Below the pieces are notes generated by a model. It saw only the letters and a program-made list of their open reading frames with translations, did not search any database and was not told the DNA's origin. A stretch of DNA of 64,000 nucleotides from a bacterium. GTDB lineage: Bacteria; Patescibacteriota; Minisyncoccia; UBA6257; GWB1-50-10. Positions 3,418 to 64,000 of the stretch are shown in pieces (the first letter of the stretch is position 1; the number at the start of each line of letters is the position of its first letter). Location: positions 74,894-138,893 of the forward strand of contig JAUSKB010000026.1 in assembly GCA_030647415.1 (NCBI GenBank). Direction: 5' to 3'. The position numbers were made by a program, and so were the translations under genes.

Positions 3418-3491
3418 TGGTCGGCCCGGCAGGAATCGGACCTACGTTCAATGTGTATAAGACATTTGCTCTACCATTGAGCTACGGGCCG
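3418..3491 (-). tRNA. tRNA-Ile (anticodon UAU), hand-folded
   Basis: Revcomp CGGCCCG TA GCTC AATGGTA GAGC A AATGT CTTATAC ACATT ... CGGGCCG A CCA: 7-bp acceptor, canonical D arm, 5-bp anticodon stem, loop CU-UAU-AC, CCA encoded. T-arm slightly atypical. Confidence 0.55.
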
Positions 3492-4144
3492 AATTTTTCC
3501 CGAACAGCTTTTAATCCCTGAAGTATCTTCTCAGCAACTCTAGCATTGCTTATTTTAATAGTACAGGTTCCATGGCCAAACGTGCCACGATTTATTGATT
3601 GTGAAGAATTTTTTTTGATATAGGGCTTCGTGAACTGCTCTCTCGGCAATTTAAGCGCGTGAGACCAATATGCTATCTCTGATTCTATATTCATATCACT
3701 GTAAAGATGCAGGTGTACGCGTATTTTTTCTTTCTCCAAATTAAGACAATGTGTTGTCCAATAGATAAAAAACTTCGGCACTGCAGGGTCGGTATTTGCA
3801 ACTTCCAGTTCCGAAACCCTCGTTTTTGAACCTTCTCCCCAGTAAAGGAAGAGTCCGGCTATGTACAAGTCTCTTTTCGAAAACGGGAAGATTTCATCTT
3901 TTTGAGACTCGTAAACTACTTGTAGCCGTAGTTCTTTTTTTCTAAACATCGTCTCACGGTATCGCTCAATACGAACTTCATTCCAATCGCGAAGAGCCCT
4001 GACCCGCTCCTTTGAGAGCGGGAGGCCACAAAGCCAGTAACTTAAGGTGCTTTTACTTACCCCTAGTTCTTTCTTGATCTGGCTATAGCTTTTTCCCTCT
4101 TTTCGCAAAGCTAATGCTCTCTGTTTGTCTTTTACTCGAGTCAT
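3482..4144 (-). CDS. HTH-domain protein with a degenerate LAGLIDADG-like motif (possible free-standing homing-endonuclease-like gene) in an AT-rich islet between two tRNAs
   Basis: 220 aa; N-terminal HTH (RKEGKSYSQIKKELGVSKSTLSYWL); motif DLYIAGLFLYWGEGSK resembles LAGLIDADG; local GC is clearly lower than surrounding genes. Confidence 0.35.
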   Translation of the reverse strand: MTRVKDKQRALALRKEGKSYSQIKKELGVSKSTLSYWLCGLPLSKERVRALRDWNEVRIERYRETMFRKKELRLQVVYESQKDEIFPFSKRDLYIAGLFLYWGEGSKTRVSELEVANTDPAVPKFFIYWTTHCLNLEKEKIRVHLHLYSDMNIESEIAYWSHALKLPREQFTKPYIKKNSSQSINRGTFGHGTCTIKISNARVAEKILQGLKAVREKFGP

Positions 4145-6852: not shown

Positions 6853-6894
6853 TAATCGCGAATAATGCGAATCGGGGGAGGTAATAATGCGAAT
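6851..6894. repeat. Family B terminal repeat, left arm (AGTAATCGCGAATAATGCGAAT + GGTAATAATGCGAAT)
   Basis: Inverted partner at 7320-7362; contains GGAGG and the ATG of the GxxExxY gene. Confidence 0.85.
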
Positions 6895-7303
6895 GGGGAA
6901 CGAACCCGATACGAGTAGCGGAAACAAAGAGCTGATACTCCCGGAATTGAGCTACGCTATCATCGGCGCAGCGTTCACCGTATTCAACCATCTCGGTTGG
7001 GGATTTTCCGAGAAAGACTACGGAAATGCGCTTGCAATAGAGCTTCAAAAACAAACTATTAACTTCAAGCGAGAGGTGTATGTCCCGTTACGGTATGGAC
7101 CGGAAAATGTCGGCAGGTATTTTGCCGATTTCATCATCGAGGGAAAAATATTGGTTGAGTTGAAAGTTGTCCACAAATTAGGGTACACTCATGCGAAGCA
7201 GGTGCTAGGGTACCTCCGATCTGGGGGGTTCCGGCTCGGTCTGCTCATCTATTTTACGAACGGCGGGGTGAAATATCGCCGCATTCTGAACAGCGGCGTA
7301 TAA
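6887..7303 (+). CDS. GxxExxY protein (PD-(D/E)XK nuclease superfamily; 23S rRNA intervening-sequence-type protein)
   Basis: 138 aa; ELSYAIIGAAFTVFNHLGWGFSEKDYGNALAIEL is the family signature (GxxExxY); the alternative start at 6893 lies inside the repeat. Confidence 0.8.
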   Translation: MRMGNEPDTSSGNKELILPELSYAIIGAAFTVFNHLGWGFSEKDYGNALAIELQKQTINFKREVYVPLRYGPENVGRYFADFIIEGKILVELKVVHKLGYTHAKQVLGYLRSGGFRLGLLIYFTNGGVKYRRILNSGV

Positions 7304-9249: not shown

Positions 9250-9633
9250 TTATTCTTTATCTTTTTCCTGTCTACCAGTATCTTTATCAAATTTCATTGT
9301 CTCTTCTCTGCTTGATATCCCAGTGACCCTTCGTAAGACATCCAAAAGGTTGAGAATTTCGATATATGTTTCTTGGAGTTTTTCATCAGTTCTTTTAAAT
9401 TGTTCATCGTATTGCGCCCTCTTATCTACCCACTGGTCGAGTGCGGGGAGCTCTCGCATATCCACCTTTCCTTCTCCAGCAAGATTGTTGTACCCTGCTG
9501 GCACTCTCTGCAAGCGTCCAATTTGGTCAACCACGCTGGTCAAGCTGTCGATACTCTCGCGCATTTTTTGAATACCAGCTTCAAGTCCGCCCTCTTTTGC
9601 CGATTTCGGTTGTTCGGTGTTTGGGATTTCCAT
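9250..9633 (-). CDS. hypothetical protein (low-GC islet)
   Basis: 127-aa charged ORF convergent with the 8591 gene. Confidence 0.45.
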   Translation of the reverse strand: MEIPNTEQPKSAKEGGLEAGIQKMRESIDSLTSVVDQIGRLQRVPAGYNNLAGEGKVDMRELPALDQWVDKRAQYDEQFKRTDEKLQETYIEILNLLDVLRRVTGISSREETMKFDKDTGRQEKDKE

Positions 9634-18215: not shown

Positions 18216-18316
18216 CCTGTTAGAAGTTTACATACACATAGGACTGGTTGTAGGCGTGTCGGTGCCAGCACTTCCCTGTGGATATCACAAGTGTGTGTGG
18301 GTAAACTTCTAACAGG
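18216..18316. repeat. Family A palindromic element, copy A3
   Basis: CCTGTTAGAAGTTTACATACACAT ... GTGTGTGGGTAAACTTCTAACAGG. Confidence 0.8.
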
Positions 18317-20420: not shown

Positions 20421-20523
20421 CCTGTTAGAAGTTTACAGACACTCATTGAGTGTGTAGTGTAGCGTGTTATCTAAAACAACATGTGTAACATGAACACAGC
20501 GTGCGCGTAAACTTCTAACAGGG
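20421..20523. repeat. Family A palindromic element, copy A4, with conserved outer flanks TAAGAAAAAGATTCACCCTG... and ...CAGGGTGAAAGAAAAAGGAGGG
   Basis: The same outer flanks occur at copy A6. Confidence 0.85.
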
Positions 20524-27876: not shown

Positions 27877-27918
27877 GTAACAAACAACCTACGACACACA
27901 ACTAACAACCTATTTATC

Positions 27919-28019
27919 CTGTTAGAAGTTTACAAATAATCATTTTCCTATGAATTTGATGGTTATATTCAAAACCAAAACTATGCAGGAATACAAATTT
28001 TGCGTAAACTTCTAACAGG
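27919..28019. repeat. Family A palindromic element, copy A5; the right end CTAACAGG is immediately followed by the ATG at 28020
   Basis: CCTGTTAGAAGTTTACAAATAAT ... TTGCGTAAACTTCTAACAGG-ATGAACCTC. Confidence 0.85.
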
Positions 28020-29324
28020 ATGAACCTCACAAAGAAACAGCTCATCATCCTCGGCGGTATCGTCCTTGTAGTCATCATTCTGGTGCTCATGGGGCTCGGT
28101 ATCATCCCGGGACTGAAGACTGGCCCGGTCACCATGAAACCGGTTTCGCTCACCGTATGGGGCGTAGAGGACGCCGTACAGGAGCTGCAACCCGCGGTGC
28201 AATCGTTCGCCAGGAACCACCCCGGTGCCACCGTCACCTACTGGCAGTTTACCGACACCGAGACGTACCACACCACCCTCCTCGAGGCGCTCGCCGCGGG
28301 CACGGGACCGGATATCTTCGCCATACGGAACACCGAGGTGATGCGCCATGCCTCGAAGCTCGTCGCAATGCCGAAAGAGCGGCTCTCGCTCCTCACTCTC
28401 CGAAACACGTTCGCCCCCGTGGTGGAGCGTGATTTTGTGGTAAACGGCGGGGTCGTTGCGCTGCCGCTTTCCATAGACACGCTCTCACTCATCTATAATC
28501 GGGACCACTTCAACGAGGCGGGCATCGTTTCTGCTCCCGCCACCTGGGACGACCTCGTCGCCATTGCGCCGCGGCTTTCGGTCGTTGACGACTCGCGCCG
28601 GGTCACTCGCGCTTCCATAGCGCTTGGCGGTTCGGGTAGTACCATACCGCGCGTCAGCGACATTATTTCGGCATTGATGCTTCAGGGTGGCATCGTACCC
28701 GTCGGGCCCGACTGGGGCGGCGCCGGTTTCGCAACCCGCGCAGGATATGACGCGGTGAACTTCTACCTGCAGTTTTCGAACACCGGAAGCCCGCTCTACA
28801 CCTGGAATGAGGGGATGCCGAATGCTGTGGATGCGTTCGCACAAGGACGGGTCGCTATGATTATCGACTACGCCCGCGCACTGCCGGACATCCGGGAGCG
28901 AAACCCGCTCATGAACTTCGCCGTCGCACCACTCCCCCAGCAGAAGGGGGCGGAGCGGTCAAAGACCATGGCCTCCTACTGGGGCTATACGGTTTCCCGC
29001 CAATCGAAGCAGGCCCGGCTCGCGTGGGACTTCATCGTGGAAACAGCAACGAACCCGCAGGTGGTCAGTGCATACTTGAATGCTTCAAAACGCCCGCCGG
29101 CGATACCGAAATTCATCGAAGCGTACCGCGACAATCCCAACCTCGCCGTATTCGCCCAGCAAACGCTCACCGCCGATTCCTGGCCGATGCCGAACCGGGA
29201 CCTGGTAGGGGGCATATTCTCCGACATGGTGACGACGGTGCTTGAGAATCGGGCGAGCGTCGAAACGGCCGTAGGCCGCGCGCAGAGCGATATTTCGCGA
29301 CTCATCGGGTCGCGGCCGCGGTAA
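28020..29324 (+). CDS. extracellular solute-binding protein (ABC transporter, family 1), membrane-anchored
   Basis: 434 aa; N-terminal TM anchor, SBP_bac_1-like fold; starts MNL, identical first 9 nt to the gene at 54068. Confidence 0.65.
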   Translation: MNLTKKQLIILGGIVLVVIILVLMGLGIIPGLKTGPVTMKPVSLTVWGVEDAVQELQPAVQSFARNHPGATVTYWQFTDTETYHTTLLEALAAGTGPDIFAIRNTEVMRHASKLVAMPKERLSLLTLRNTFAPVVERDFVVNGGVVALPLSIDTLSLIYNRDHFNEAGIVSAPATWDDLVAIAPRLSVVDDSRRVTRASIALGGSGSTIPRVSDIISALMLQGGIVPVGPDWGGAGFATRAGYDAVNFYLQFSNTGSPLYTWNEGMPNAVDAFAQGRVAMIIDYARALPDIRERNPLMNFAVAPLPQQKGAERSKTMASYWGYTVSRQSKQARLAWDFIVETATNPQVVSAYLNASKRPPAIPKFIEAYRDNPNLAVFAQQTLTADSWPMPNRDLVGGIFSDMVTTVLENRASVETAVGRAQSDISRLIGSRPR

Positions 29325-32141: not shown

Positions 32142-32154
32142 GAAAAAGGATTTA

Positions 32155-32255
32155 CCCTGTTAGAGTTTTACAAACACTTTAGTTATATGCATTTGGTTGG
32201 TACCGCATACCACCGGTATCAAGCATAGTAGTGTGCGTGTAAAACTCTAACAGGG
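32155..32255. repeat. Family A palindromic element, copy A6
   Basis: TAAGAAAAAGGATTTACCCTGTTAGAGTTTTACAAACAC ... GTGTGCGTGTAAAACTCTAACAGGGTAAAAGAAAAAGGAGGG. Confidence 0.85.
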
Positions 32256-32277
32256 TAAAAGAAAAAGGAGGGATTTA

Positions 32278-32379
32278 CCCTGTTAGAAATTTACATACAC
32301 CCATACCACATGATGTCGTCTGTCTCCTGAAACTGCACCGTATTCATGAATACGGTGTGCGTGTAAATTTCTAATAGGG
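32278..32379. repeat. Family A palindromic element, copy A7 (tandem with A6)
   Basis: CCCTGTTAGAAATTTACATACAC ... GTGTGCGTGTAAATTTCTAATAGGG. Confidence 0.85.
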
Positions 32380-41295: not shown

Positions 41296-41506
41296 CCCTG
41301 TTAGAGTTTTACAAATACACCTGTACAAGCTGAATTATTTGTCACCTCATACCAAGCTGTGCACAACCCAACGGCGTGCCCCGTGAGAGATTTACGCGCA
41401 AACTACTTGCTGGGAAATGGTTTTGTTATAATCAGTAAGTGAAATTCGATACTAGGAAATGGTCTGTAAATCTCTAACGGGGCGTGCAAGTAAAACTCTA
41501 ACAGGG
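41296..41506. repeat. Family A palindromic element, copy A9 (outer, 211 bp), carrying a nested copy
   Basis: Left CCCTGTTAGAGTTTTACAAATACAC at 41296; right GCAAGTAAAACTCTAACAGGGT at 41487-41506. Confidence 0.75.
41389..41482. repeat. Family A variant copy A10, nested inside A9
   Basis: CCCCGTGAGAGATTTACG ... TGTAAATCTCTAACGGGG. Confidence 0.7.
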
Positions 41507-44906: not shown

Positions 44907-45623
44907 TTACTTTTTACCTTTTACTACCGCAATCGGCTTCGCGCCGGGGAGCATCAACAACCCGGAACCTTCCATGAGAATCTCCTGGTAGCGCGGATTG
45001 AATTGCCGAATCGTCTCGGGGTCGATGCCGTACCGCGCGGCGATAGTTGTGAGTGAATCGCCAGCTATGACCGCGTAGCGCACGCCGGAAACCGGCAGTA
45101 TGGTAAGTTCAGCGCCGGGACGGATCGTGCGCCCCACGGACAGGTTCGCCCACCGGATCGTCTCCGGCGTTATGCCGAACCGGGCGGCGAGCGCGGCGAG
45201 CGTGTCACCTCGCTGTACACGGTACCGGATGGTCCCGTCCGCTACGGGAATGGTTACGGTAAACGGCATCGCGGCTGCAGTAAGGTCGCTCTCCGTCACC
45301 GTCCCCAGGTCGGGGACAGCGCCTGCCTGTCCGGCCCGCCCAGATGACTCGGTCGGACGGGTAGGCAGCGCTGACAATCCCACCGCACCCGCCCGGATGA
45401 CTCGGTCGGACGGGTCATCGAACGGATTTATCTCGCCTGTCTGCGCAGGCGGGTTTGGAAGTGTTGTTATATCTGAAAATACACCCTCCCCGTCCGACCG
45501 AGTCATCCGGGCGGGCACGCCGTCGTTTTTGGACTCATCCACATAGCTGCTCACAATCTTGTCTGCGGAGACCCCAGAAGCGCCAATAAGGCCTGTAATT
45601 CCCAGGAGAATGAGCGACCACAT
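44907..45623 (-). CDS. LysM-domain protein (two LysM repeats); linker region carries three copies of the 28-bp dispersed repeat
   Basis: YRVQRGDTLAALAARFGI and YAVIAGDSLTTIAARYGI; N-terminal TM anchor. Confidence 0.8.
   Translation of the reverse strand: MWSLILLGITGLIGASGVSADKIVSSYVDESKNDGVPARMTRSDGEGVFSDITTLPNPPAQTGEINPFDDPSDRVIRAGAVGLSALPTRPTESSGRAGQAGAVPDLGTVTESDLTAAAMPFTVTIPVADGTIRYRVQRGDTLAALAARFGITPETIRWANLSVGRTIRPGAELTILPVSGVRYAVIAGDSLTTIAARYGIDPETIRQFNPRYQEILMEGSGLLMLPGAKPIAVVKGKK
45336..45363. repeat. 28-bp dispersed repeat GCCCGCCC(A/G)GATGACTCGGTCGGACGGG, copy 1 (inside the LysM gene)
   Basis: Further copies at 45389-45416 (same orientation), 45490-45518 (inverted), 47774-47801 and 54641-54672 (variant). 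Confidence 0.85.
45389..45416. repeat. 28-bp dispersed repeat, copy 2 (inside the LysM gene)
   Basis: Exact core match. Confidence 0.85.
45490..45518. repeat. 28-bp dispersed repeat, copy 3, inverted (inside the LysM gene)
   Basis: CCCCGTCCGACCGAGTCATCCGGGCGGGC. Confidence 0.85.
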
Positions 45624-53883: not shown

Positions 53884-53967
53884 TCTAATCTCAACAAGCA
53901 GAGGCAAGCTGAGGCCGAGCGGCAGCGGAAAGCCGGTGGAGCAACACCAAATCCATAACCCATTTAT

Positions 53968-54067
53968 CCTGTTAGAAGTTTACAGATAGTTATTTATATG
54001 GAAAATATTATTGTTATGCAAAATAAAATTGTGAAGTGGCGGTGTTTGCGCGTAAACTTCTAACAGG
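53968..54067. repeat. Family A palindromic element, copy A12; the right end is followed directly by the ATG at 54068
   Basis: CCTGTTAGAAGTTTACAGATAG ... TTGCGCGTAAACTTCTAACAGG-ATGAACCTC. Confidence 0.85.
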
Positions 54068-55072
54068 ATGAACCTCTCGAATATAACTTTTGAGCTGCTC
54101 TCCGAACGGTACGAGGAGATACCGGAACGGTTTCGGGAGCTCCTCGAGTCACCCGGCACAAAAACAACACTCGTGCGCATCGGGGCGCAACACGCGCTTG
54201 ACCACGAACGGCAAACACTCCTTGAGGCGCTGGTCGGTCTTGTCTTCACCGGTTTCCTCTCCCCGGATGACCTCGCGGGGGAGTTTGTCGACCGCCTCTT
54301 CCTGAACTTCGTCCACGCCCGCGCGCTCGCCCGCGAGGTGGACGAGACCTTCTTCGCGCCGCACCGCCGCGACCTCGTTCGCGTCTACAACCCCGTGGGC
54401 GGGGTACCGCAGGGCCCAACCGTCCGGAGTGCGGAACGACCTATGATTGGATTGCCTTCACAAGTAGGAAAGACGATTTCACTTGAATCCATCGGCGCTT
54501 CAGGCGGTAGGGAACAAAAGCTTCCCATTAACGAGGTTGCGGCGCCGCTCGTGATTCTCGGCTCCAGCTCCCCCACCCTCCGCAAACCGATTATTCCGAA
54601 CCGCCCGCCGGAACGCCTGTTTGCCAGCCAGGCAGGCCTGCCTACCCATCCGACCGAGTTATCCGGGCGAGCCGGACAAACGGTTTCGGAGAAGCCGGTG
54701 TACCACTCACCCTTTTCCTTCCGGTTCCCGTTCCGCTCACCGCAGGCGGCGCGTACCCCGCTGGGCGACTCCACGGGACCGACCGCGACCGTCCGATTGC
54801 CCGGCAGTGCGGCACCAGCGCAGAAGAAGGATGGGCTTCATATTGTCCACTATGCGGAAACACGCGGGAGACTCGGCCCGCCGCTATCAACCGGAAAGGG
54901 GGGGGTAGTGAACCTGGACCAGCTGGGGGCGCAGCAAAGAAAAGAGACAAGAGAAAAAGGACAAGAGACGCCCATCGCACCGACAACCGACAACCGACAA
55001 CCGACAACCATCCCGAAACCACAGCCGAAGATCGATGGGAACACCATAGACCTCCGGGCAAATAAACTCTAA
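54068..55072 (+). CDS. hypothetical Pro-rich protein containing an in-frame variant of the 28-bp repeat
   Basis: 334 aa; starts MNL, identical 5' end to the 28020 gene; PTHPTELSGRAGQT is encoded by the repeat at 54641-54672. Confidence 0.5.
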   Translation: MNLSNITFELLSERYEEIPERFRELLESPGTKTTLVRIGAQHALDHERQTLLEALVGLVFTGFLSPDDLAGEFVDRLFLNFVHARALAREVDETFFAPHRRDLVRVYNPVGGVPQGPTVRSAERPMIGLPSQVGKTISLESIGASGGREQKLPINEVAAPLVILGSSSPTLRKPIIPNRPPERLFASQAGLPTHPTELSGRAGQTVSEKPVYHSPFSFRFPFRSPQAARTPLGDSTGPTATVRLPGSAAPAQKKDGLHIVHYAETRGRLGPPLSTGKGGVVNLDQLGAQQRKETREKGQETPIAPTTDNRQPTTIPKPQPKIDGNTIDLRANKL

Positions 55073-55125
55073 ATCCGAAACTCTAAATCCTAAACAAGCA
55101 CGAAATTCTAAACTCTAAACCACTG
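55066..55125. repeat. Family C repeat (CTCTAAATCCGAAAC(C/T)CTAAATCCTAAACAA...), forward arm C1
   Basis: Inverted partner at 55516-55580; together they bracket the four-helix-bundle gene. Confidence 0.8.
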
Positions 55126-55129
55126 CATT

Positions 55130-55495
55130 ATGGAACCGAGCGTGGGCTTGAAACGGTATGATTTGGAGGCGCGAACGCTTCAATTTACAAGGGATGTCAT
55201 TTCGTTCGTTTCCGCCCTTCCCCGGAGTATTGCCAATATTGAAATCATCAAACAGCTCATCCGGGCGACTGGTTCGGTGGGAGCGAATTATATAGAAGCG
55301 AATGAGTCCGTAAGCAGAAAGGACTTTCTCTTACGAGTTAAGATTTCCAAAAAAGAGTCGCGAGAGGCAATATACTGGTTGGAGCTCGTACAATGCTCAA
55401 ATGAGCAATGTGAAGTTAGGAGGCGTGAATTGATCCGAGAAGCGACCGAGCTCATGAAAATTCTCGGTTCAATCGTCGAAAAATCATCTCGGTGA
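55130..55495 (+). CDS. four-helix-bundle protein (TIGR02436 / 23S rRNA intervening-sequence protein; Avd-like)
   Basis: 121 aa; RATGSVGANYIEANESVSRKDFLLRVKISKKESREAIYWLEL matches the family core; lower GC than neighbours. Confidence 0.7.
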   Translation: MEPSVGLKRYDLEARTLQFTRDVISFVSALPRSIANIEIIKQLIRATGSVGANYIEANESVSRKDFLLRVKISKKESREAIYWLELVQCSNEQCEVRRRELIREATELMKILGSIVEKSSR

Positions 55496-55515
55496 TATTG
55501 CATTCATGATTTTTC

Positions 55516-55580
55516 CCTGTTTCGGATTTGAGATTTGGAATTTGTTTAGGGTTTAGGGTTTCGAATTTAGAATTTATCTG
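55516..55580. repeat. Family C repeat, reverse arm C2 (GTTTAGGGTTTAGGGTTTCGAATTTAGAATTT)
   Basis: Reverse complement of the C1 motifs. Confidence 0.8.
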
Positions 55581-55581
55581 T

Positions 55582-56079
55582 ATGAATTTTCAGGTCCCCC
55601 AATTCATCTCGGAAAAGGCCCACATCATCGGGCCGCTCACCTTCGCCCAGCTCGGCTACCTCATGGGCGCGGGCTTTATCGCGTTCCTTTTCTTCTCATT
55701 TTTCACGCCGTTCGTCGCGGGCTCGTTTTCTGCGGTGTTTGTCGGGGTCGCGCTCGCGCTCGCGCTCGGAAAGTTCAATGGGGTGAGTATTGCATCCATC
55801 CTTGTCGGCGCGGTCGGGTACCTCTGGAAGCCACGGGTGTACACCTGGCAACGGACATTTGCCACACAGACCTTTGACGCCTCAAGCGTAGATAAAATAG
55901 AGGCGATGCGGCGGAAGATGGGCGTCGAGGAAAAACTCAAGGCGATTGCGCTTTCGGTCACCACCGGAAAGATCTTCGCGCCAAAGGCGCCGGAGGTCGC
56001 CGCTGATGCCCAGCGATTCCAAATGGTGAGCTACCTGACCGGTGAAAAGAAGCTCGCGAAGAGAATCGACTACAGGTAG
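55582..56079 (+). CDS. small membrane protein, possibly VirB3-like (by position upstream of virB4)
   Basis: 166 aa from the internal ATG; 2-3 TM helices; matches the VirB3-VirB4 gene order. Confidence 0.3.
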   Translation: MNFQVPQFISEKAHIIGPLTFAQLGYLMGAGFIAFLFFSFFTPFVAGSFSAVFVGVALALALGKFNGVSIASILVGAVGYLWKPRVYTWQRTFATQTFDASSVDKIEAMRRKMGVEEKLKAIALSVTTGKIFAPKAPEVAADAQRFQMVSYLTGEKKLAKRIDYR

Positions 56080-56089
56080 AATAAGGTAA

Positions 56090-56228
56090 GCTCTAAATCC
56101 GAAACCCTAAATCCTAAACAAATTCGAAATTCCAAACACACTCATAAATGATGATGAAACATGATGCCATTTCGAATTTCGTGCTTGGAATTTGTTTAGA
56201 GTTTCGATATTAGGATTTAGAATTTCTA
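56090..56228. repeat. Family C palindromic element C3 (forward and reverse arms, no cargo)
   Basis: GCTCTAAATCCGAAACCCTAAATCCTAAACAAATTCGAAATTCCAA ... TTGGAATTTGTTTAGAGTTTCGATATTAGGATTTAGAATTTC. Confidence 0.8.
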
Positions 56229-56893
56229 TGGAAAAGGGTCTCCCCACACAATCATTTGTCGCCGTCAAAGAGGTTCGAAACGGCATCGTCCACCTGAAAG
56301 ACGGCGGCCTGCGCCAGCTCCTCATCGTCTCCGGCGTGAACTTCGACCTGAAGGCGGAGGAGGAGCAGGCACTTATTCTGAACACCTTCCAAAATTTCCT
56401 GAACACGCTCGACTTCACGATGCAGTGCTTCATCCATTCCCGGAAGGTGAATGTGGACACCTACCTGGACCGCATGCGCTCGCGGCAGCTCGAGGAACCG
56501 AATGAGCTCTTGAAGATCCAGATTGCCGAGTATATCGACTTCATCGCCGCGTTCGTGGACCAGAACGCCATCATATCAAAAACCTTCTTTGTGGTGGTCC
56601 CGTACGATCCGCCAGTGACGTCCGGAGCGGCGACCAAGGGCGTGCTTGGCTTCTTCAAGAAACGCGAGGCGGCGACGGTCATCGCGGACGAGGCGGCAAC
56701 GCTCCAGGAGCACTTGAAGCAGCTCGAACAGCGGGTGACACAGGCGACCGAGGGCCTCCTCCAGATCGGGCTACGGGCAGTCCGGCTCCGCGACGACGAG
56801 ACCATCGAGTTGTTCTACAACCTCTACAATCCGGAACTGGTCGAGAAGAAGGGGCTCGACATAGCAAAGCCAGACAAAGCCGGAAAATCCTAA
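56228..56893 (+). CDS. virB4: VirB4/ConE-family ATPase, N-terminal fragment (split gene)
   Basis: 222 aa; IVHLKDGGLRQLLIVSGVNFDLKAEEEQALILNTFQNFLNTLDFTMQ fits the CagE/TrbE/VirB4 N-terminal domain pattern; 222+587 aa equals a normal VirB4 length. Confidence 0.5.
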   Translation: MEKGLPTQSFVAVKEVRNGIVHLKDGGLRQLLIVSGVNFDLKAEEEQALILNTFQNFLNTLDFTMQCFIHSRKVNVDTYLDRMRSRQLEEPNELLKIQIAEYIDFIAAFVDQNAIISKTFFVVVPYDPPVTSGAATKGVLGFFKKREAATVIADEAATLQEHLKQLEQRVTQATEGLLQIGLRAVRLRDDETIELFYNLYNPELVEKKGLDIAKPDKAGKS

Positions 56894-57012
56894 GCACGAA
56901 ACCCTAAATCCTAAACAAACCCGAATGTTCCAAATCCGAAACGGTGCGCATGCGTTTGTGGTTTCGTGCTTCGATATTGTTTCGGATTTCGATATTAGAA
57001 TTTAGGATTTCT
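56893..57012. repeat. Family C palindromic element C4, lying between the two virB4 fragments
   Basis: AGCACGAAACCCTAAATCCTAAACAAACCCGAATGTTCCAAATCCGAAAC ... GTTTCGTGCTTCGATATTGTTTCGGATTTCGATATTAGAATTTAGGATTTCT. Confidence 0.8.
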
Positions 57013-57038
57013 AACACAGAACTTATACCACTACGACC

Positions 57039-58802
57039 ATGAAGTTCTCCATCCCTAAAGCCTACACCCCCTCTCCCGACGACCTGCCGAGCGTCATCGC
57101 GCCTGCGGGTGTCGAGGTGAATCCGTCGCACCTGAAGCTTGGCGACTACCTCGTGAAGACCTTCTTCATCTTCACCTACCCGCGGTACCTCACCTCGAGC
57201 TGGTTCTCGCCCATCATCAATCTGACGGAGATGATGGAGATCTCGATCTTCTTCCACCCGATGGACACCGCGACGGCGCTCCGGGACCTTCGGAAGAAGG
57301 TGACGCAAATCGAGGCGGAGCTTTCCGAAAAGGAGGAGAAGGGGCTGGTGCGGGACCCGCAGCTCGAGACGGCGTACCAGGACGTGGAATCACTCCGCGA
57401 CTCGCTCCTCCAGGCGCGCGAGAAGCTGTTCTCGGTCGCTGTCTACATCACTCTTTACGGGAGGAACGCGGACGACCTCGAGAAGGTCGCGCAGGCGACG
57501 CAATCCCTCCTTGAGTCAAAGCTGGTGTATATGAAACCGGCGCTCTTCCGCCAAATCGAGGGATTTACCTCCATGCTTCCCATTGGACGCGACGTGCTGG
57601 AAATTCGGACCCCCTTGAACTCCGGCCCCGCCTCCTCGCTCTTCCCCTTCGTCTCGCCGGACCTCTCGTCGGACAAGGGAATCCTGTACGGCGTGAACCT
57701 CCACAACAACTCGCTTGTCATCTTCGACCGCTTCTCGCTCGAGAACGCGAACTCGGTCATCTTCGCAAAATCCGGTGCTGGAAAATCGTTCACCGCGAAG
57801 CTCCAAATCCTCCGGTCGCTCATGGTCGGCACGAACGTCATTGTCATCGACCCGGAGAACGAGTACCAGAACCTTGCGAACGCCATCGGCGGCAGCTACT
57901 TCAAGATCTCTCTCACCTCCCCGAACCATGTGAACCCGTTCGACATCCCCCTTATGCCCGCGGGGGAGGAGCCGGCAGACGTCTTCAAGTCGCACGTCCT
58001 GAATCTCACTGGCCTCGTGAAGCTCATGCTGGGCGCCATCACGCCGGAGGAGGACTCACTCCTCGACCGTGTTATTACCGAGACCTATGCCTCCCGCGAC
58101 ATCACCGCGGCGACCTTCGGCGAAGCCAAGGAAGAGCTGAATCCACCCCTCCTCGAGGACCTGCAAATTATTCTCCAGAACACCGAGGGCGGACAGGGAA
58201 TGTCCCAGCGCCTTGAGAAGTTCGTGCACGGCTCGTACGCCGGGTTCACGAACGCGCCGACGAACGTCGACATCAAGAACCGGCTCATCGTCTTTTCGAT
58301 GCGCGACCTCGAGGAGGAGCTCCGGCCGGTCGCGATGTACATCATCACGAACTTCATCTGGAACCTCATCCGCTCGGAGTTGAAACCCCGGCTCCTCATG
58401 ATCGACGAGGCGTGGATCATGATGAAGTATAAGGATTCGGCGCAGTTTCTCTTCGGCCTCGTGAAGCGCGCCCGAAAGTACTACCTCGGCATCACCACCA
58501 TCTCCCAGGAGGTTGAGGATTTCCTGAAATCTGACTATGGCCGCCCCATCATCACGAACTCCTCCATTCAGCTCCTGATGAAGCAGTCGCCGACCTCCAT
58601 CGAGGCGGTCGCGAAGGCGTTCGACCTGACCGAGGGGGAGCGGGAGCTCCTCCTTGAGGCGGGGATCGGCGAGGGGCTCTTCTTCGCGGGATTGAAACAC
58701 GTCGCCATTAAGGTGGTCGCCTCATACACCGAGGACCAGATTATTACTACCAACCCGGAACAGCTGCTGGAGGCGAAGGGGCTCGGGGGACAGAAGACAT
58801 AA
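57039..58802 (+). CDS. virB4: VirB4/TrbE/ConE-family type IV secretion ATPase, C-terminal portion
   Basis: 587 aa; Walker A FAKSGAGKSFT at about residue 247, Walker B LLMIDEAW; placing Walker A at residue 247 of a full-length protein would be unusually far N-terminal, consistent with a missing N-terminus. Confidence 0.85.
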   Translation: MKFSIPKAYTPSPDDLPSVIAPAGVEVNPSHLKLGDYLVKTFFIFTYPRYLTSSWFSPIINLTEMMEISIFFHPMDTATALRDLRKKVTQIEAELSEKEEKGLVRDPQLETAYQDVESLRDSLLQAREKLFSVAVYITLYGRNADDLEKVAQATQSLLESKLVYMKPALFRQIEGFTSMLPIGRDVLEIRTPLNSGPASSLFPFVSPDLSSDKGILYGVNLHNNSLVIFDRFSLENANSVIFAKSGAGKSFTAKLQILRSLMVGTNVIVIDPENEYQNLANAIGGSYFKISLTSPNHVNPFDIPLMPAGEEPADVFKSHVLNLTGLVKLMLGAITPEEDSLLDRVITETYASRDITAATFGEAKEELNPPLLEDLQIILQNTEGGQGMSQRLEKFVHGSYAGFTNAPTNVDIKNRLIVFSMRDLEEELRPVAMYIITNFIWNLIRSELKPRLLMIDEAWIMMKYKDSAQFLFGLVKRARKYYLGITTISQEVEDFLKSDYGRPIITNSSIQLLMKQSPTSIEAVAKAFDLTEGERELLLEAGIGEGLFFAGLKHVAIKVVASYTEDQIITTNPEQLLEAKGLGGQKT

Positions 58803-63114: not shown

Positions 63115-63546
63115 TCACTCCGGAATCTGCTTCACAACCACCCGGCGCTCCTTGCCCTCGCCAGCGCTTTCGGTCTTCAGCGTCGGGTGCGCGGCGATCT
63201 CCACATGCACCAGCCGGCGCTCGTAGGCATTCATCGGCGGGAGCTCCACATCCTCTTTCGTCATAGTCGCCCGCTTCGCGGCGGCGCGCGCGAGCTCGGC
63301 GATCAACCGTTCGCGTTCCTTCCGGTAGTAGTTCAGGTCAATAACAAATGACTGCTTCCCTTCCCGGCGCAAGATGAGGTTGAAGATGTAGTCGAGCGAG
63401 GTGACGAGCGTCGAGAGGTTCGCGCGCACCACATCGTCATCGAGCACGATGGAAACCCGCCGGTGCTCTTCGTCCACGGTGACCTTCGCTTCGCGGCACT
63501 GGAGGTGTCCGACGATTATATTGAATTTTTCGATGATTTGCTTCAT
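63115..63546 (-). CDS. jag: Jag/KhpB (KH + R3H RNA-binding protein)
   Basis: R3H signature NAYERRLVHVEIAAHP; downstream of yidC as in the conserved yidC-jag operon. Confidence 0.8.
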   Translation of the reverse strand: MKQIIEKFNIIVGHLQCREAKVTVDEEHRRVSIVLDDDVVRANLSTLVTSLDYIFNLILRREGKQSFVIDLNYYRKERERLIAELARAAAKRATMTKEDVELPPMNAYERRLVHVEIAAHPTLKTESAGEGKERRVVVKQIPE

Positions 63547-64000
63547 ATGTCTTTTATCCTTTTTCTTTTATCTTTTGGGTCTGCTGTCTGCCTGTCCATC
63601 GCGCGGTTAATATACACCTGTTGCACCACCGAGAAAAGTGTGGAAATGAGCCAGTAGAGCCCCAAGGCCGCGGGGAGGTTCATGAGTACGACGACGGTAA
63701 GTATCGGTCCCACAATAATCATGACCTTCCCTACTGCAGCGGCGCTGGACTTCGCGGGTGTGGTCTTTGGTGGTATTGAAAGCTTTCCTTGGAGGTATTG
63801 GAGCGCGGCGGCAATTAGTATGATTGGAATGCTCTTCGCGCTTAGGTCAACAAACCCAAGTAGAGTGTGGGTAGCGAACACCGTTCCAGCAAGCTCGCGA
63901 CTGAAAATTTGGAAGAGCGCAAAAAAAATCGGCAACTGGAGGATGAGGAGAAAGATGCTCGAGAATGGGTTTAGTTTGTGCTCTTTATAGAGCGCCATGA
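63543..64000 (-). CDS. yidC: membrane protein insertase YidC, C-terminal part (N-terminus beyond the window end)
   Basis: LYKEHKLNPFSS and the following hydrophobic helices match the YidC/Oxa1 core; the true ORF is probably open through position 64000. Confidence 0.75.
   Translation of the reverse strand, partial: MALYKEHKLNPFSSIFLLILQLPIFFALFQIFSRELAGTVFATHTLLGFVDLSAKSIPIILIAAALQYLQGKLSIPPKTTPAKSSAAAVGKVMIIVGPILTVVVLMNLPAALGLYWLISTLFSVVQQVYINRAMDRQTADPKDKRKRIKDI

Follow-up and report, generated by a model that had tools for sequence, protein, structure and literature searches.

The T4SS operon of a Paceibacteria-type (CPR / Patescibacteria) bacterium contains two neighboring open reading frames, ORF1 and ORF2, which together resemble a single VirB4 ATPase and are separated by an imperfect palindrome of a repeat family termed family C. 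This arrangement raises the question of whether the palindrome has broken a virB4 gene, as proposed in a sequence-only reading of the 64,000-nucleotide stretch of DNA analyzed here (the window), which left three outcomes for the gene: inactivation, function as a two-chain VirB4 or rejoining at the RNA level. We conclude, with a probability of about 0.9, that the locus encodes a normal, lineage-wide two-gene VirB4 ATPase and that the hairpin landed later in a pre-existing gap.

The operon is chromosomal and adjoins yidC/R3H; relatives have it near dnaA. Its upstream part holds a hairpin of a second family (TTTATCCTGTTAGAAGTTTACA ... GTAAACTTCTAACAGGATGAA, 53964..54072, no strand assigned), with 16 arm matches within the window, in the spacer 5' of a gene for a 334-aa protein without a Pfam family (54068..55072, + strand). 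Reading of the sequence places the ATG of this gene (54068) inside the right arm of the hairpin. The 334-aa gene is the counterpart of a 365-aa gene 5' of PrgI in relatives, and gene order is kept in L002-L004. Family C copy A (55059..55580, no strand assigned) comes next, with arms at 55059-55120 and 55519-55580 that are 62 nt long and 76% complementary. Copy A encloses a cargo gene (55130..55495, + strand) whose 121-aa product, a four-helix-bundle protein, is of the “23S rRNA intervening sequence protein” type (Pfam 23S_rRNA_IVP, E 2e-13; NCBIfam TIGR02436, E 1.8e-18). A PrgI / VirB3-like small membrane protein is encoded at 55582..56079 (+ strand; Pfam PrgI, E 1.5e-5), its true start being ATG 55582 (MNFQVPQFI), one base past the copy A arm, by homology to L002 (MNFIVPQFI). 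The PrgI-ORF1 spacer is filled by copy B (56084..56227, no strand assigned), an empty hairpin that abuts the ORF1 ATG. Its RNA fold reaches −32.5 kcal/mol (z −3.5), its right arm is also found 5' of ORF1 in relative L005, and it contains one promoter-like site, no more than chance. ORF1 (56228..56893, + strand, ATG start) is followed by copy C, an empty hairpin of about 133 nt (~56883..57015, no strand assigned), by 23 nt of ordinary spacer (57016..57038, + strand) and by ORF2 (57039..58802, + strand). Four consecutive operon spacers are thus each occupied by hairpin elements. A VirB4 context is present, with PrgI upstream and T4SS_pilin-like genes downstream, and the identical operon of a relative includes TrbL_3. 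No rRNA was found in the window.

The sequence-only reading had placed the two ORFs, the Walker A and B motifs and the imperfect palindrome in the gap correctly. Its ORF coordinates stand, and its lengths of 222 aa, 809 aa and 146 bp are corrected to 221 aa plus stop for ORF1, 808 aa for both ORFs combined and 145 nt for the gap. It was also right in taking ORF1 and ORF2 as parts of one VirB4-type ATPase. The ORFs lie in different frames, and their combined 808 aa compare with 786-800 aa in fused homologues. Alignment to a fused homologue of 797 aa (P0242) is collinear and free of overlap, ORF1 matching residues 8-226 and ORF2 residues 233-789, and alignment to VirB4 models likewise yielded non-overlapping coverage by the two ORFs. 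Profile coverage, fused-homologue alignment and PDB matches therefore agree that one VirB4 is covered without overlap. By these alignments, the split falls inside the VirB4 N-domain, at about model position 185-190, and not at the border between N-domain and ATPase domain. An AF2 model of fused P0242, built with a block alignment, had a pLDDT of 58.9 with residues 115-239 below 50, its N-domain being too poor to place the junction. Comparison with relatives gave dN/dS values of 0.14 for ORF1 and 0.035-0.08 for ORF2; judged by these ratios, both ORFs are under purifying selection.

ORF2 (587 aa) corresponds to the VirB4 core, comprising the distal half of the N-domain and the RecA-like ATPase domain. 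It matches the CD1110 family model NF045971 with 361.8 bits, above the cutoff of 325, over model positions 189-733 of 752. Pfam assigns P-loop_TraG (E 6.5e-27), AAA_10, DUF87 and TraC_F_IV (positions 281-373 of 375), and PDB matches include the VirB4 C-terminal domain 4AG5 (E 5.5e-46) and TrwK (445-741). Walker A (GAGKS, residues 246-250) is encoded at 57774..57788 and Walker B (DEAW, residues 456-459) at 58404..58415, both on the + strand; G246, G248, K249, S250 and DEAW are invariant in the ORF2 family alignment (A3), and all family-invariant residues are kept in both full-length ORFs. The sequence-only view that ORF2 lacks the N-terminal domain holds for the proximal half, which resides on ORF1, and fails for the distal half, which is matched by the first ~220 residues of ORF2. 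A complete N-domain is hence not present on the ATPase chain alone and is obtained only with both chains together. The best 120 ORF2 homologues are all 582-604 aa long, cover 97-100% of the query and share an MK(F/I).. start. Full-length relatives of the 587-aa ORF thus begin where it begins, which is the second half of the refutation test set by the sequence-only reading itself. The ORF2 ATG, previously regarded as new, is this conserved family start. A Shine-Dalgarno-like sequence is not evident 5' of the ATG, and the element-free relative L002 likewise lacks an obvious one.

ORF1 has the size and position of a TrsD protein (221 aa, 145 nt upstream of ORF2). Of its 1418 homologues, the best 120 are all stand-alone proteins of 201-227 aa, and stand-alone forms of ~215 aa occur throughout Patescibacteria. 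A profile search of 1.84 billion representatives returned 3071 matches, of which the best 150 are mostly ~200-250 aa, some being truncated or up to 440 aa, and include only one full-length protein (797 aa). The TraC-like family PF26593 is a precomputed annotation of a 100%-identical protein (P0001) and of all 120 best homologues; our Pfam search, run on a copy that has no PF26593, gave only a sub-threshold TraC_F_IV match (E 0.028). The NCBIfam TrsD model NF041427 was matched with E 1.1e-10, but at 41.7 bits versus a curated cutoff of 200. VirB4 models were matched in their N-terminal parts (VirB4_CagE 19-185 of 792; CD1110 8-100 of 752; VirB4_plasma 110-233 of 894), this homology being remote (E 1e-10 to 6e-5). 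A Foldseek search with the ORF1 structure model pointed in the same direction, the top 13 matches all being TrwK/VirB4 with probabilities of 0.77-1.0 and low TM-scores (0.30-0.41). When the ORF1 alignment was used for a profile search of the PDB, no meaningful match emerged (E 0.74, unrelated protein), and an hhalign comparison of the ORF1 profile with pGO1 TrsD as a single sequence was not significant (probability 3.6%). Given the model score and the hhalign value, orthology to staphylococcal TrsD rests on remote similarity together with shared gene layout. As judged from the profile matches, ORF1 corresponds to about residues 1-190 of a VirB4 in its full-length form.

We then compared the arrangement across relatives. 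In L002, whose ORF2 is 83% identical, the same operon has the same stop and ATG, a 17-nt spacer and no palindrome. The element-free loci L002-L004 consistently encode PrgI, a TraC-like protein (216 aa) and VirB4 (583 aa), the spacers between them measuring 24 and 17 nt. An ORF1 homologue lies directly upstream of the ORF2 homologue in 78 of 80 species-level loci; 70 of these 78 are split, seven are fused in frame (786-800 aa) and one was left unclassified. An apparent fusion in L040 proved to result from a masked run of 100 N and was dropped from the counts. Spacers of split loci often measure −8 to +30 nt, and 38 are at least 50 nt. The close relatives L005 and L001 carry different elements in the ORF1-ORF2 spacer, which implies that the spacer existed before any of them arrived, and other species have 80-460-nt spacers with hairpins or cargo genes at this site. 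Rooting with pGO1 TrsE gave a neighbor-joining tree in which fused forms are nested among split lineages. These genome comparisons show that hundreds of genomes share the split and that it is older than the hairpin. In-frame fusion in about 9% of the sampled species is Rosetta-stone evidence for TrsD being a functional part of VirB4.

Copy C itself has 41-nt arms (56885-56925 and 56970-57010; 71% complementary), and its ends were set against metagenomic copies. Its RNA folds better than shuffled sequences on either strand (z −2.6 for the + strand, −3.6 for the − strand). ORF1 takes its final three codons and its stop (GGA AAA TCC TAA, GKS*) from the left end of copy C, which touches only the variable C-terminal tail of this protein. 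Because the element (~56883-57015) overlaps the ORF1 end and leaves 23 nt before the ATG, the gap does not, contrary to the earlier assumption, consist entirely of family C sequence; the remaining 23 nt come close to the 17 nt that separate the two genes in element-free L002. No ORF lies within the gap, and a scan for intrinsic terminators was negative at the hairpin. Searched by E-value with Rfam, the region 54900-57200 yielded no credible family, intron or ribozyme, only a chance-level microRNA-precursor match (E 0.1). The protein-coding information is uninterrupted by copy C. Most probably, copy C entered a short pre-existing spacer at the 3' end of ORF1, replaced the non-conserved tail of this gene by GKS-stop and expanded the spacer from ~20 nt to 145 nt.

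Several other explanations have to be weighed against these data. A recent cut of an intact ~809-aa virB4 by the family C palindrome, with stop and start both arising anew, would account for the exact position of the element between the two parts, for the stop codon it gives to ORF1 and for the fused ~790-aa versions in some species. However, L002-L004 have the same stop and start without the element, the gene is split in 70 of 78 loci, the MK(F/I).. start of ORF2 is conserved family-wide, and the spacer predates the different elements it holds in L005 and L001. We therefore consider such a cut extremely improbable, and the claim that the palindrome split the gene falls with it. If instead the two ORFs were a decaying pseudogene pair, the ATPase having been inactivated by the hairpin insertion or by lost translational coupling, the 145-nt spacer, compared with typically −8 to +30 nt in relatives, and the lack of an evident Shine-Dalgarno-like sequence before the ORF2 ATG would find an explanation. 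Yet both ORFs are full length with invariant residues and Walker motifs intact, dN/dS is 0.14 and 0.035 versus element-carrying relatives, many other species cope with 80-460-nt spacers that contain hairpins or cargo genes at this site, and element-free L002 has no obvious Shine-Dalgarno sequence either. Inactivation, one of the outcomes considered earlier, is contradicted by the intact motifs and low dN/dS, and decay is in our view very unlikely.

Production of one 808-aa protein, either by excision of the hairpin from the mRNA in the manner of an rRNA IVS and rejoining of the halves or by ribosome bypass, is brought to mind by the link of the family to IVS-type cargo, copy A holding a 23S_rRNA_IVP gene, and by a family C arm in a 23S rRNA insertion of L127. 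Excision of bacterial IVSs by RNase III, however, leaves fragments that are not religated. In addition, the ORFs are in different frames, Rfam finds neither intron nor ribozyme in 54900-57200, and relatives without the element make two proteins with stop codons, so that rejoining is not needed. This outcome, too, had been put forward from the sequence alone; it is unnecessary and unsupported, and we assign it a negligible chance. ORF1 might, finally, be an independent accessory protein descended from the VirB4 N-terminus, with ORF2 working alone as a shortened VirB4, and the remoteness of its homology to VirB4 N-termini (E 1e-10 to 6e-5) would fit such a divergence. Opposed to this are the in-frame fusions in seven of 78 species and in P0242, the fact that an ORF1 homologue immediately precedes ORF2 in 78 of 80 loci, many with tight or overlapping spacers, the retention of only the distal half of the N-domain by ORF2, and the essentiality of a TrsD homologue alongside T4SS genes in Ca. 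S. epibionticum, as reported in PMC12102498. An independent role of ORF1 is accordingly improbable. Among the three earlier options, the evidence favors a two-chain VirB4. With this, the lead of a disrupted or RNA-rejoined virB4 is removed and the locus takes its place in a published architecture.

The TrsD-plus-VirB4 arrangement in Patescibacteria is already known (PMC12102498). According to that study (Quinonero-Coronel et al. 2025, Microb Genom), TrsD homologues number 2,272 in Patescibacteria, of which 1,664 adjoin VirB4, and one is essential, together with T4SS genes, in Ca. S. epibionticum. The Patescibacteria T4SS, of which TrsD and VirB4 are part, is essential for the epibiotic lifestyle in the sole cultivated model. 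The systems described there share with the present locus the order PrgI/VirB3-like, TrsD-like, VirB4, the nearby VirB6-like and pilin-like genes and a chromosomal site near the replication origin. The proteins show no essential difference, whereas hairpins like those in four consecutive spacers here are not discussed in the passages of that article that were consulted. ORF1 and ORF2 are 57-94% identical to MAG proteins of Jorgensenbacteria, Paceibacterota and Brennerbacteria. Since the split is lineage-wide and published and the hairpin came later into a pre-existing gap, the finding is an ordinary one.

Staphylococcus aureus pGO1, the MPF_FATA prototype, has a comparable layout with trsD (227 aa), a 14-nt spacer and a 672-aa DUF87 ATPase (trsE), and a small membrane protein precedes trsD. 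It differs in being a plasmid conjugation system, whereas the operon described here is chromosomal and includes pilin-like genes, and protein similarity is remote. Single-chain VirB4 proteins (TrwK of R388, PDB 7O41/8RTB; the CD1110 family; F TraC) are alike in ATPase domain, Walker motifs and summed length, and the N-terminal region of TrwK is matched by the ORF1 model; unlike in these proteins, the polypeptide is here divided within the N-domain. For the two-gene VirB4, we envisage that both chains associate non-covalently and thereby rebuild a complete N-domain, which may dock on the PrgI/VirB3-like protein at the membrane, and that the assembled two-chain ATPase would power the T4SS machinery. 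The hairpin would remove tight translational coupling between the genes and, as a long stem-loop in the polycistronic mRNA, could serve as substrate for a double-strand-specific RNase.

The window contains three copies of family C, two of which are empty, and its motif occurs 18 times versus 4.0 expected. Here, the arms are 37-62 nt long and 71-78% complementary, with fold z-scores of −2.6 to −3.6. A 25-nt core of the right arm has exact matches in 97 metagenomic stretches. A tblastn search around 80 metagenomic copies of family C detected no IVP, GxxExxY or GIY-YIG cargo, so that most of these 80 copies are empty or carry unrelated content. Like 23S rRNA IVSs with a four-helix-bundle ORF (23S_rRNA_IVP, TIGR02436), the elements form a long imperfect hairpin, and the copy A loop holds an IVP-family gene; in contrast to those IVSs, the copies here occupy mRNA intergenic spacers and not rRNA. 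With MITE-/REP-like repeats they share that they are short, non-coding, AT-rich, imperfect palindromes, multi-copy and intergenic in many genomes. They differ from these repeats by arms of ~7-nt periodic units and by the IVP, GxxExxY or GIY-YIG genes carried by some copies. Neither a target-site duplication nor a transposase partner was identified for family C.

It is the hairpins, and not the split, that may be new. A poorly targeted literature search met no published description of such hairpin-plus-cargo elements. We tentatively propose, while regarding it as rather doubtful, that they represent an undescribed class of mobile IVS-like elements in Patescibacteria, with arms of ~7-nt periodic units, either empty or carrying IVP, GxxExxY nuclease-like or GIY-YIG genes, and homing to the few nucleotides that precede start codons, to the flanks of tRNAs and to rRNA insertions. 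In this essential secretion operon they have filled four spacers in a row, where they would be co-transcribed and perhaps be cleaved by RNase III, so that genes once tightly coupled would yield messages processed separately. A bolder and speculative step would be to hold such elements responsible for the ancestral TrsD/VirB4 fission. The ORF1-ORF2 spacer is a recurrent landing site for hairpins and selfish cargo and could be used to study their spread in reduced genomes; in relatives, it holds other hairpins carrying four-helix-bundle, GxxExxY or GIY-YIG genes.

The virB4 region of the window consists of two forward-strand open reading frames in a chromosomal type IV secretion system (T4SS) operon, ORF1 (56228-56893, 221 aa from an ATG start) and ORF2 (57039-58802, 587 aa), found where the sequence-only reading had placed them. 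They lie in different frames and are separated by 145 nt. Both Walker motifs are found in ORF2, A as GAGKS (residues 246-250) and B as DEAW (residues 456-459); this ORF scores 361.8 bits against a curated cutoff of 325 for the NCBIfam CD1110 VirB4 family, with a match beginning only at position 189 of 752. Within it, the ATPase domain is matched both by 4AG5, a solved VirB4 C-terminal domain (E 5.5e-46), and by residues 445-741 of TrwK, the VirB4 of R388. ORF1 matches N-terminal stretches of three full-length VirB4 models: CD1110 (8-100 of 752), VirB4_CagE (19-185 of 792) and VirB4_plasma (110-233 of 894). Foldseek searches with its AF2 model (pLDDT 69.5) returned TrwK/VirB4 of R388 for all top 13 matches, at probabilities of 0.77-1.0 and modest TM-scores of 0.30-0.41. 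In the natural fusion P0242, a VirB4 homologue of 797 aa, residues 8-226 align to ORF1 (49% identity) and residues 233-789 to ORF2 (62% identity), collinearly and without overlap. Together with the non-overlapping profile coverage, this alignment bears out the proposed two-chain VirB4: ORF1 and ORF2 are two parts of one VirB4.

The division point is within the VirB4 N-domain and not at its border with the ATPase domain; ORF2 still retains TraC_F_IV positions 281-373. An AF2 model of the fusion was too poor in the N-domain to place the junction. ORF1 matches the TrsD model with E 1.1e-10, yet reaches 41.7 bits versus a cutoff of 200, and hhalign against the single TrsD sequence of the Staphylococcus aureus conjugative plasmid pGO1 was not significant. 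These scores favour the name TrsD-like, or "TraC-like" after Pfam PF26593, over strict membership of the TrsD family for ORF1. Joined by ~220 residues at the N-terminus of ORF2, this chain would make up a complete VirB4 N-domain, the part that in R388 contacts VirB3 (structures 7O41, 8RTB), and the hexameric ATPase would then energise the pilus/secretion machinery.

The division had been attributed to insertion of the imperfect palindrome that occupies the gap, a copy of the AT-rich family C (copy C, ~56883-57015). Homologues argue against this origin. The best 120 of 1418 ORF1 homologues come from Jorgensenbacteria, Paceibacterota, Brennerbacteria and other Patescibacteria, and every one is a separate protein of 201-227 aa. 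Among 1.84 billion representative proteins, a profile search yielded 3071 relatives, the best 150 of which are mostly ~200-250 aa long, with some truncated or extended to 440 aa and one full-length fusion. Likewise, the best 120 ORF2 homologues measure 582-604 aa at 97-100% query coverage and start at the same conserved position, MK(F/I).IPKAY... A relative with 83% ORF2 identity (L002-L004) carries both genes in an identical operon without the palindrome, in the order TrbL_3, a 365-aa gene, PrgI, TraC-like (216 aa) and VirB4 (583 aa), followed by pilin-like genes, R3H, YidC and DnaA; its spacers are 35, 24 and 17 nt, the two virB4 genes being 17 nt apart. Across 80 species-level genome loci, an ORF1 homologue lies directly upstream of an ORF2 homologue in 78, and 70 of these are split, many with spacers of -8 to +30 nt, as is typical of translationally coupled genes, and 38 with spacers of at least 50 nt. 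In-frame TrsD-like/VirB4 fusions were recorded at L033, L034, L036, L048, L054, L064, L074 and L007; genuine ones account for 7 of the 78 loci (786-800 aa, ~9% of sampled species), and the junction of the remaining locus is obscured by a masked run. In the fusions, a short linker stands in place of the first ~15-18 residues of the split-form VirB4. A rough neighbour-joining tree with pGO1 TrsE as its root places the fusions in two groups that are nested among lineages with the split form, and the split state is therefore probably ancestral within this sample.

Copy C is a later passenger in an already existing spacer. Its 41-nt arms (56885-56925 and 56970-57010) are 71% complementary, and its RNA fold is more stable than that of shuffled sequences (z -2.6 on the plus strand, -3.6 on the minus strand). 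Its left end supplies the last three ORF1 codons and the stop (GGA AAA TCC TAA, GKS*), and an ordinary spacer of 23 nt separates it from the ORF2 ATG. Inactivation of the gene, also suggested, finds no sign of decay: all family-invariant residues are retained in both ORFs, and dN/dS is 0.14 for ORF1 against the related locus L005, and 0.035 and 0.08 for ORF2 against L001 and L002, so that both are under purifying selection. Rejoining at the RNA level finds no support: the frames differ, relatives make two proteins, and an Rfam search of 54900-57200 detected no catalytic RNA. The observation and the two-chain VirB4 of the sequence-only reading stand; splitting by the element does not.

The layout is also that of pGO1, in which trsD (227 aa) is followed after 14 nt by a 672-aa DUF87 ATPase. 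According to Quinonero-Coronel et al. 2025 (PMC12102498), TrsD is remotely homologous to the N-terminal portion of VirB4 and is the commonest of the T4SS components recovered in Patescibacteria, with 1,664 of 2,272 homologues adjoining virB4; Ca. Southlakia epibionticum has a TrsD homologue that is essential, and the T4SS often lies near the replication origin. The operon of the window, followed by R3H and YidC genes at 63115-63998, fits this picture. The two-gene architecture is therefore already known, which leaves the finding as posed of low interest; that hairpins and their cargo genes have settled in these spacers again and again merits a separate look.

Hairpin repeats fill four consecutive operon spacers (53964-54072, 55059-55580, 56084-56227 and 56883-57015), the last three of which are merely 17-35 nt in element-free relatives. 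The hairpin at 53964-54072 belongs to a second family ('CCTGTTAGA') and includes a start codon in its arm; the others are the three family C copies of the window, all within the T4SS operon. Copy A (55059-55580; arms 55059-55120 and 55519-55580) holds in its loop, on the operon strand, a gene (55130-55495) for a 121-aa four-helix-bundle "23S rRNA IVS protein" (TIGR02436, E 1.8e-18), here in an mRNA spacer, not in rRNA. Copy B (56084-56227, in the spacer that separates ORF1 from the PrgI-like gene) and copy C look like empty versions of this element. The downstream start codon either follows the right arm at a distance of 0-1 nt or is included in it; only copy C stops short of it, by 23 nt. Exact matches to the 25-nt core of the right arm of family C, TTTCGATATTAGRATTTAGRATTTC, are present in 97 metagenomic stretches from many environments, 80 of which were fetched as loci (L089-L168). 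With a matching left arm, 27 of 70 distinct contexts fold into hairpins of 46-244 nt; the 25-mer is often part of a 100-240-nt hairpin. Copies adjoin tRNA genes in L129 and L089, and in L127 one shares the inside of a 1.4-kb 23S rRNA insertion (472-1868) with a LAGLIDADG ORF and a weak group I intron match. These contexts suggest that family C is a mobile or IVS-like hairpin family of wide distribution.

The TrsD|VirB4 spacer has other occupants elsewhere. In the close relatives L005 and L006 (ORF1 89% identical), an 86-aa GIY-YIG gene, profile-confirmed in L005 (794-1072), lies between TTTATCCCGTTAGAGAC and GTCTCTAACGGG arms, and in L001, also close (ORF2 94% identical), the right arm of the 'CTTCTAACAGG' family abuts the ATG. 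More distant species carry empty hairpins (L013, L075, L026, L027, L043) or inserts of 427-462 nt, whose ORFs, read by eye, resemble four-helix-bundle/IVS proteins (L024, L051) or GxxExxY proteins (L021). Spacer hairpins of other Paceibacteria species are unrelated; CCCGTTAGAG...CTCTAACGGG termini are common to L013, L075 and L005, and ~7-nt periodic units make up the arms of several elements.

The window contains 16 matches to arms of the second family ('TTYAYCCTGTTAGA..TCTAACAGGRTGAA'), at 818-1056, 18230-18302, 20435-20508, 27913-28024, 32151-32300, 41311-41491 and 53982-54053. Three arms (at 28005, at 54053 and in L001) finish in ...CTAACAGG with the ATGAA that opens a long gene directly after it, and the start codon would then be paired in the stem. 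Near-perfect GC-rich inverted repeats at 45334-45516 (GCCCGCCCAGATGACTCGGTCGGACGGG..., 27-32 nt, 94-100% complementary) are unrelated to the AT-rich families. Further low-GC ORFs occupy AT-rich patches of the window (57% GC) and are probably selfish cargo genes as well: a GxxExxY protein (6887-7303, plus strand; TIGR04256, E 7.6e-33), a 220-aa protein (3482-4144, minus strand) with only weak matches (E ~2e-3) to IS21/IS630 transposase models, over their N-terminal part, and a 127-aa ORF without family match (9250-9633, minus strand).
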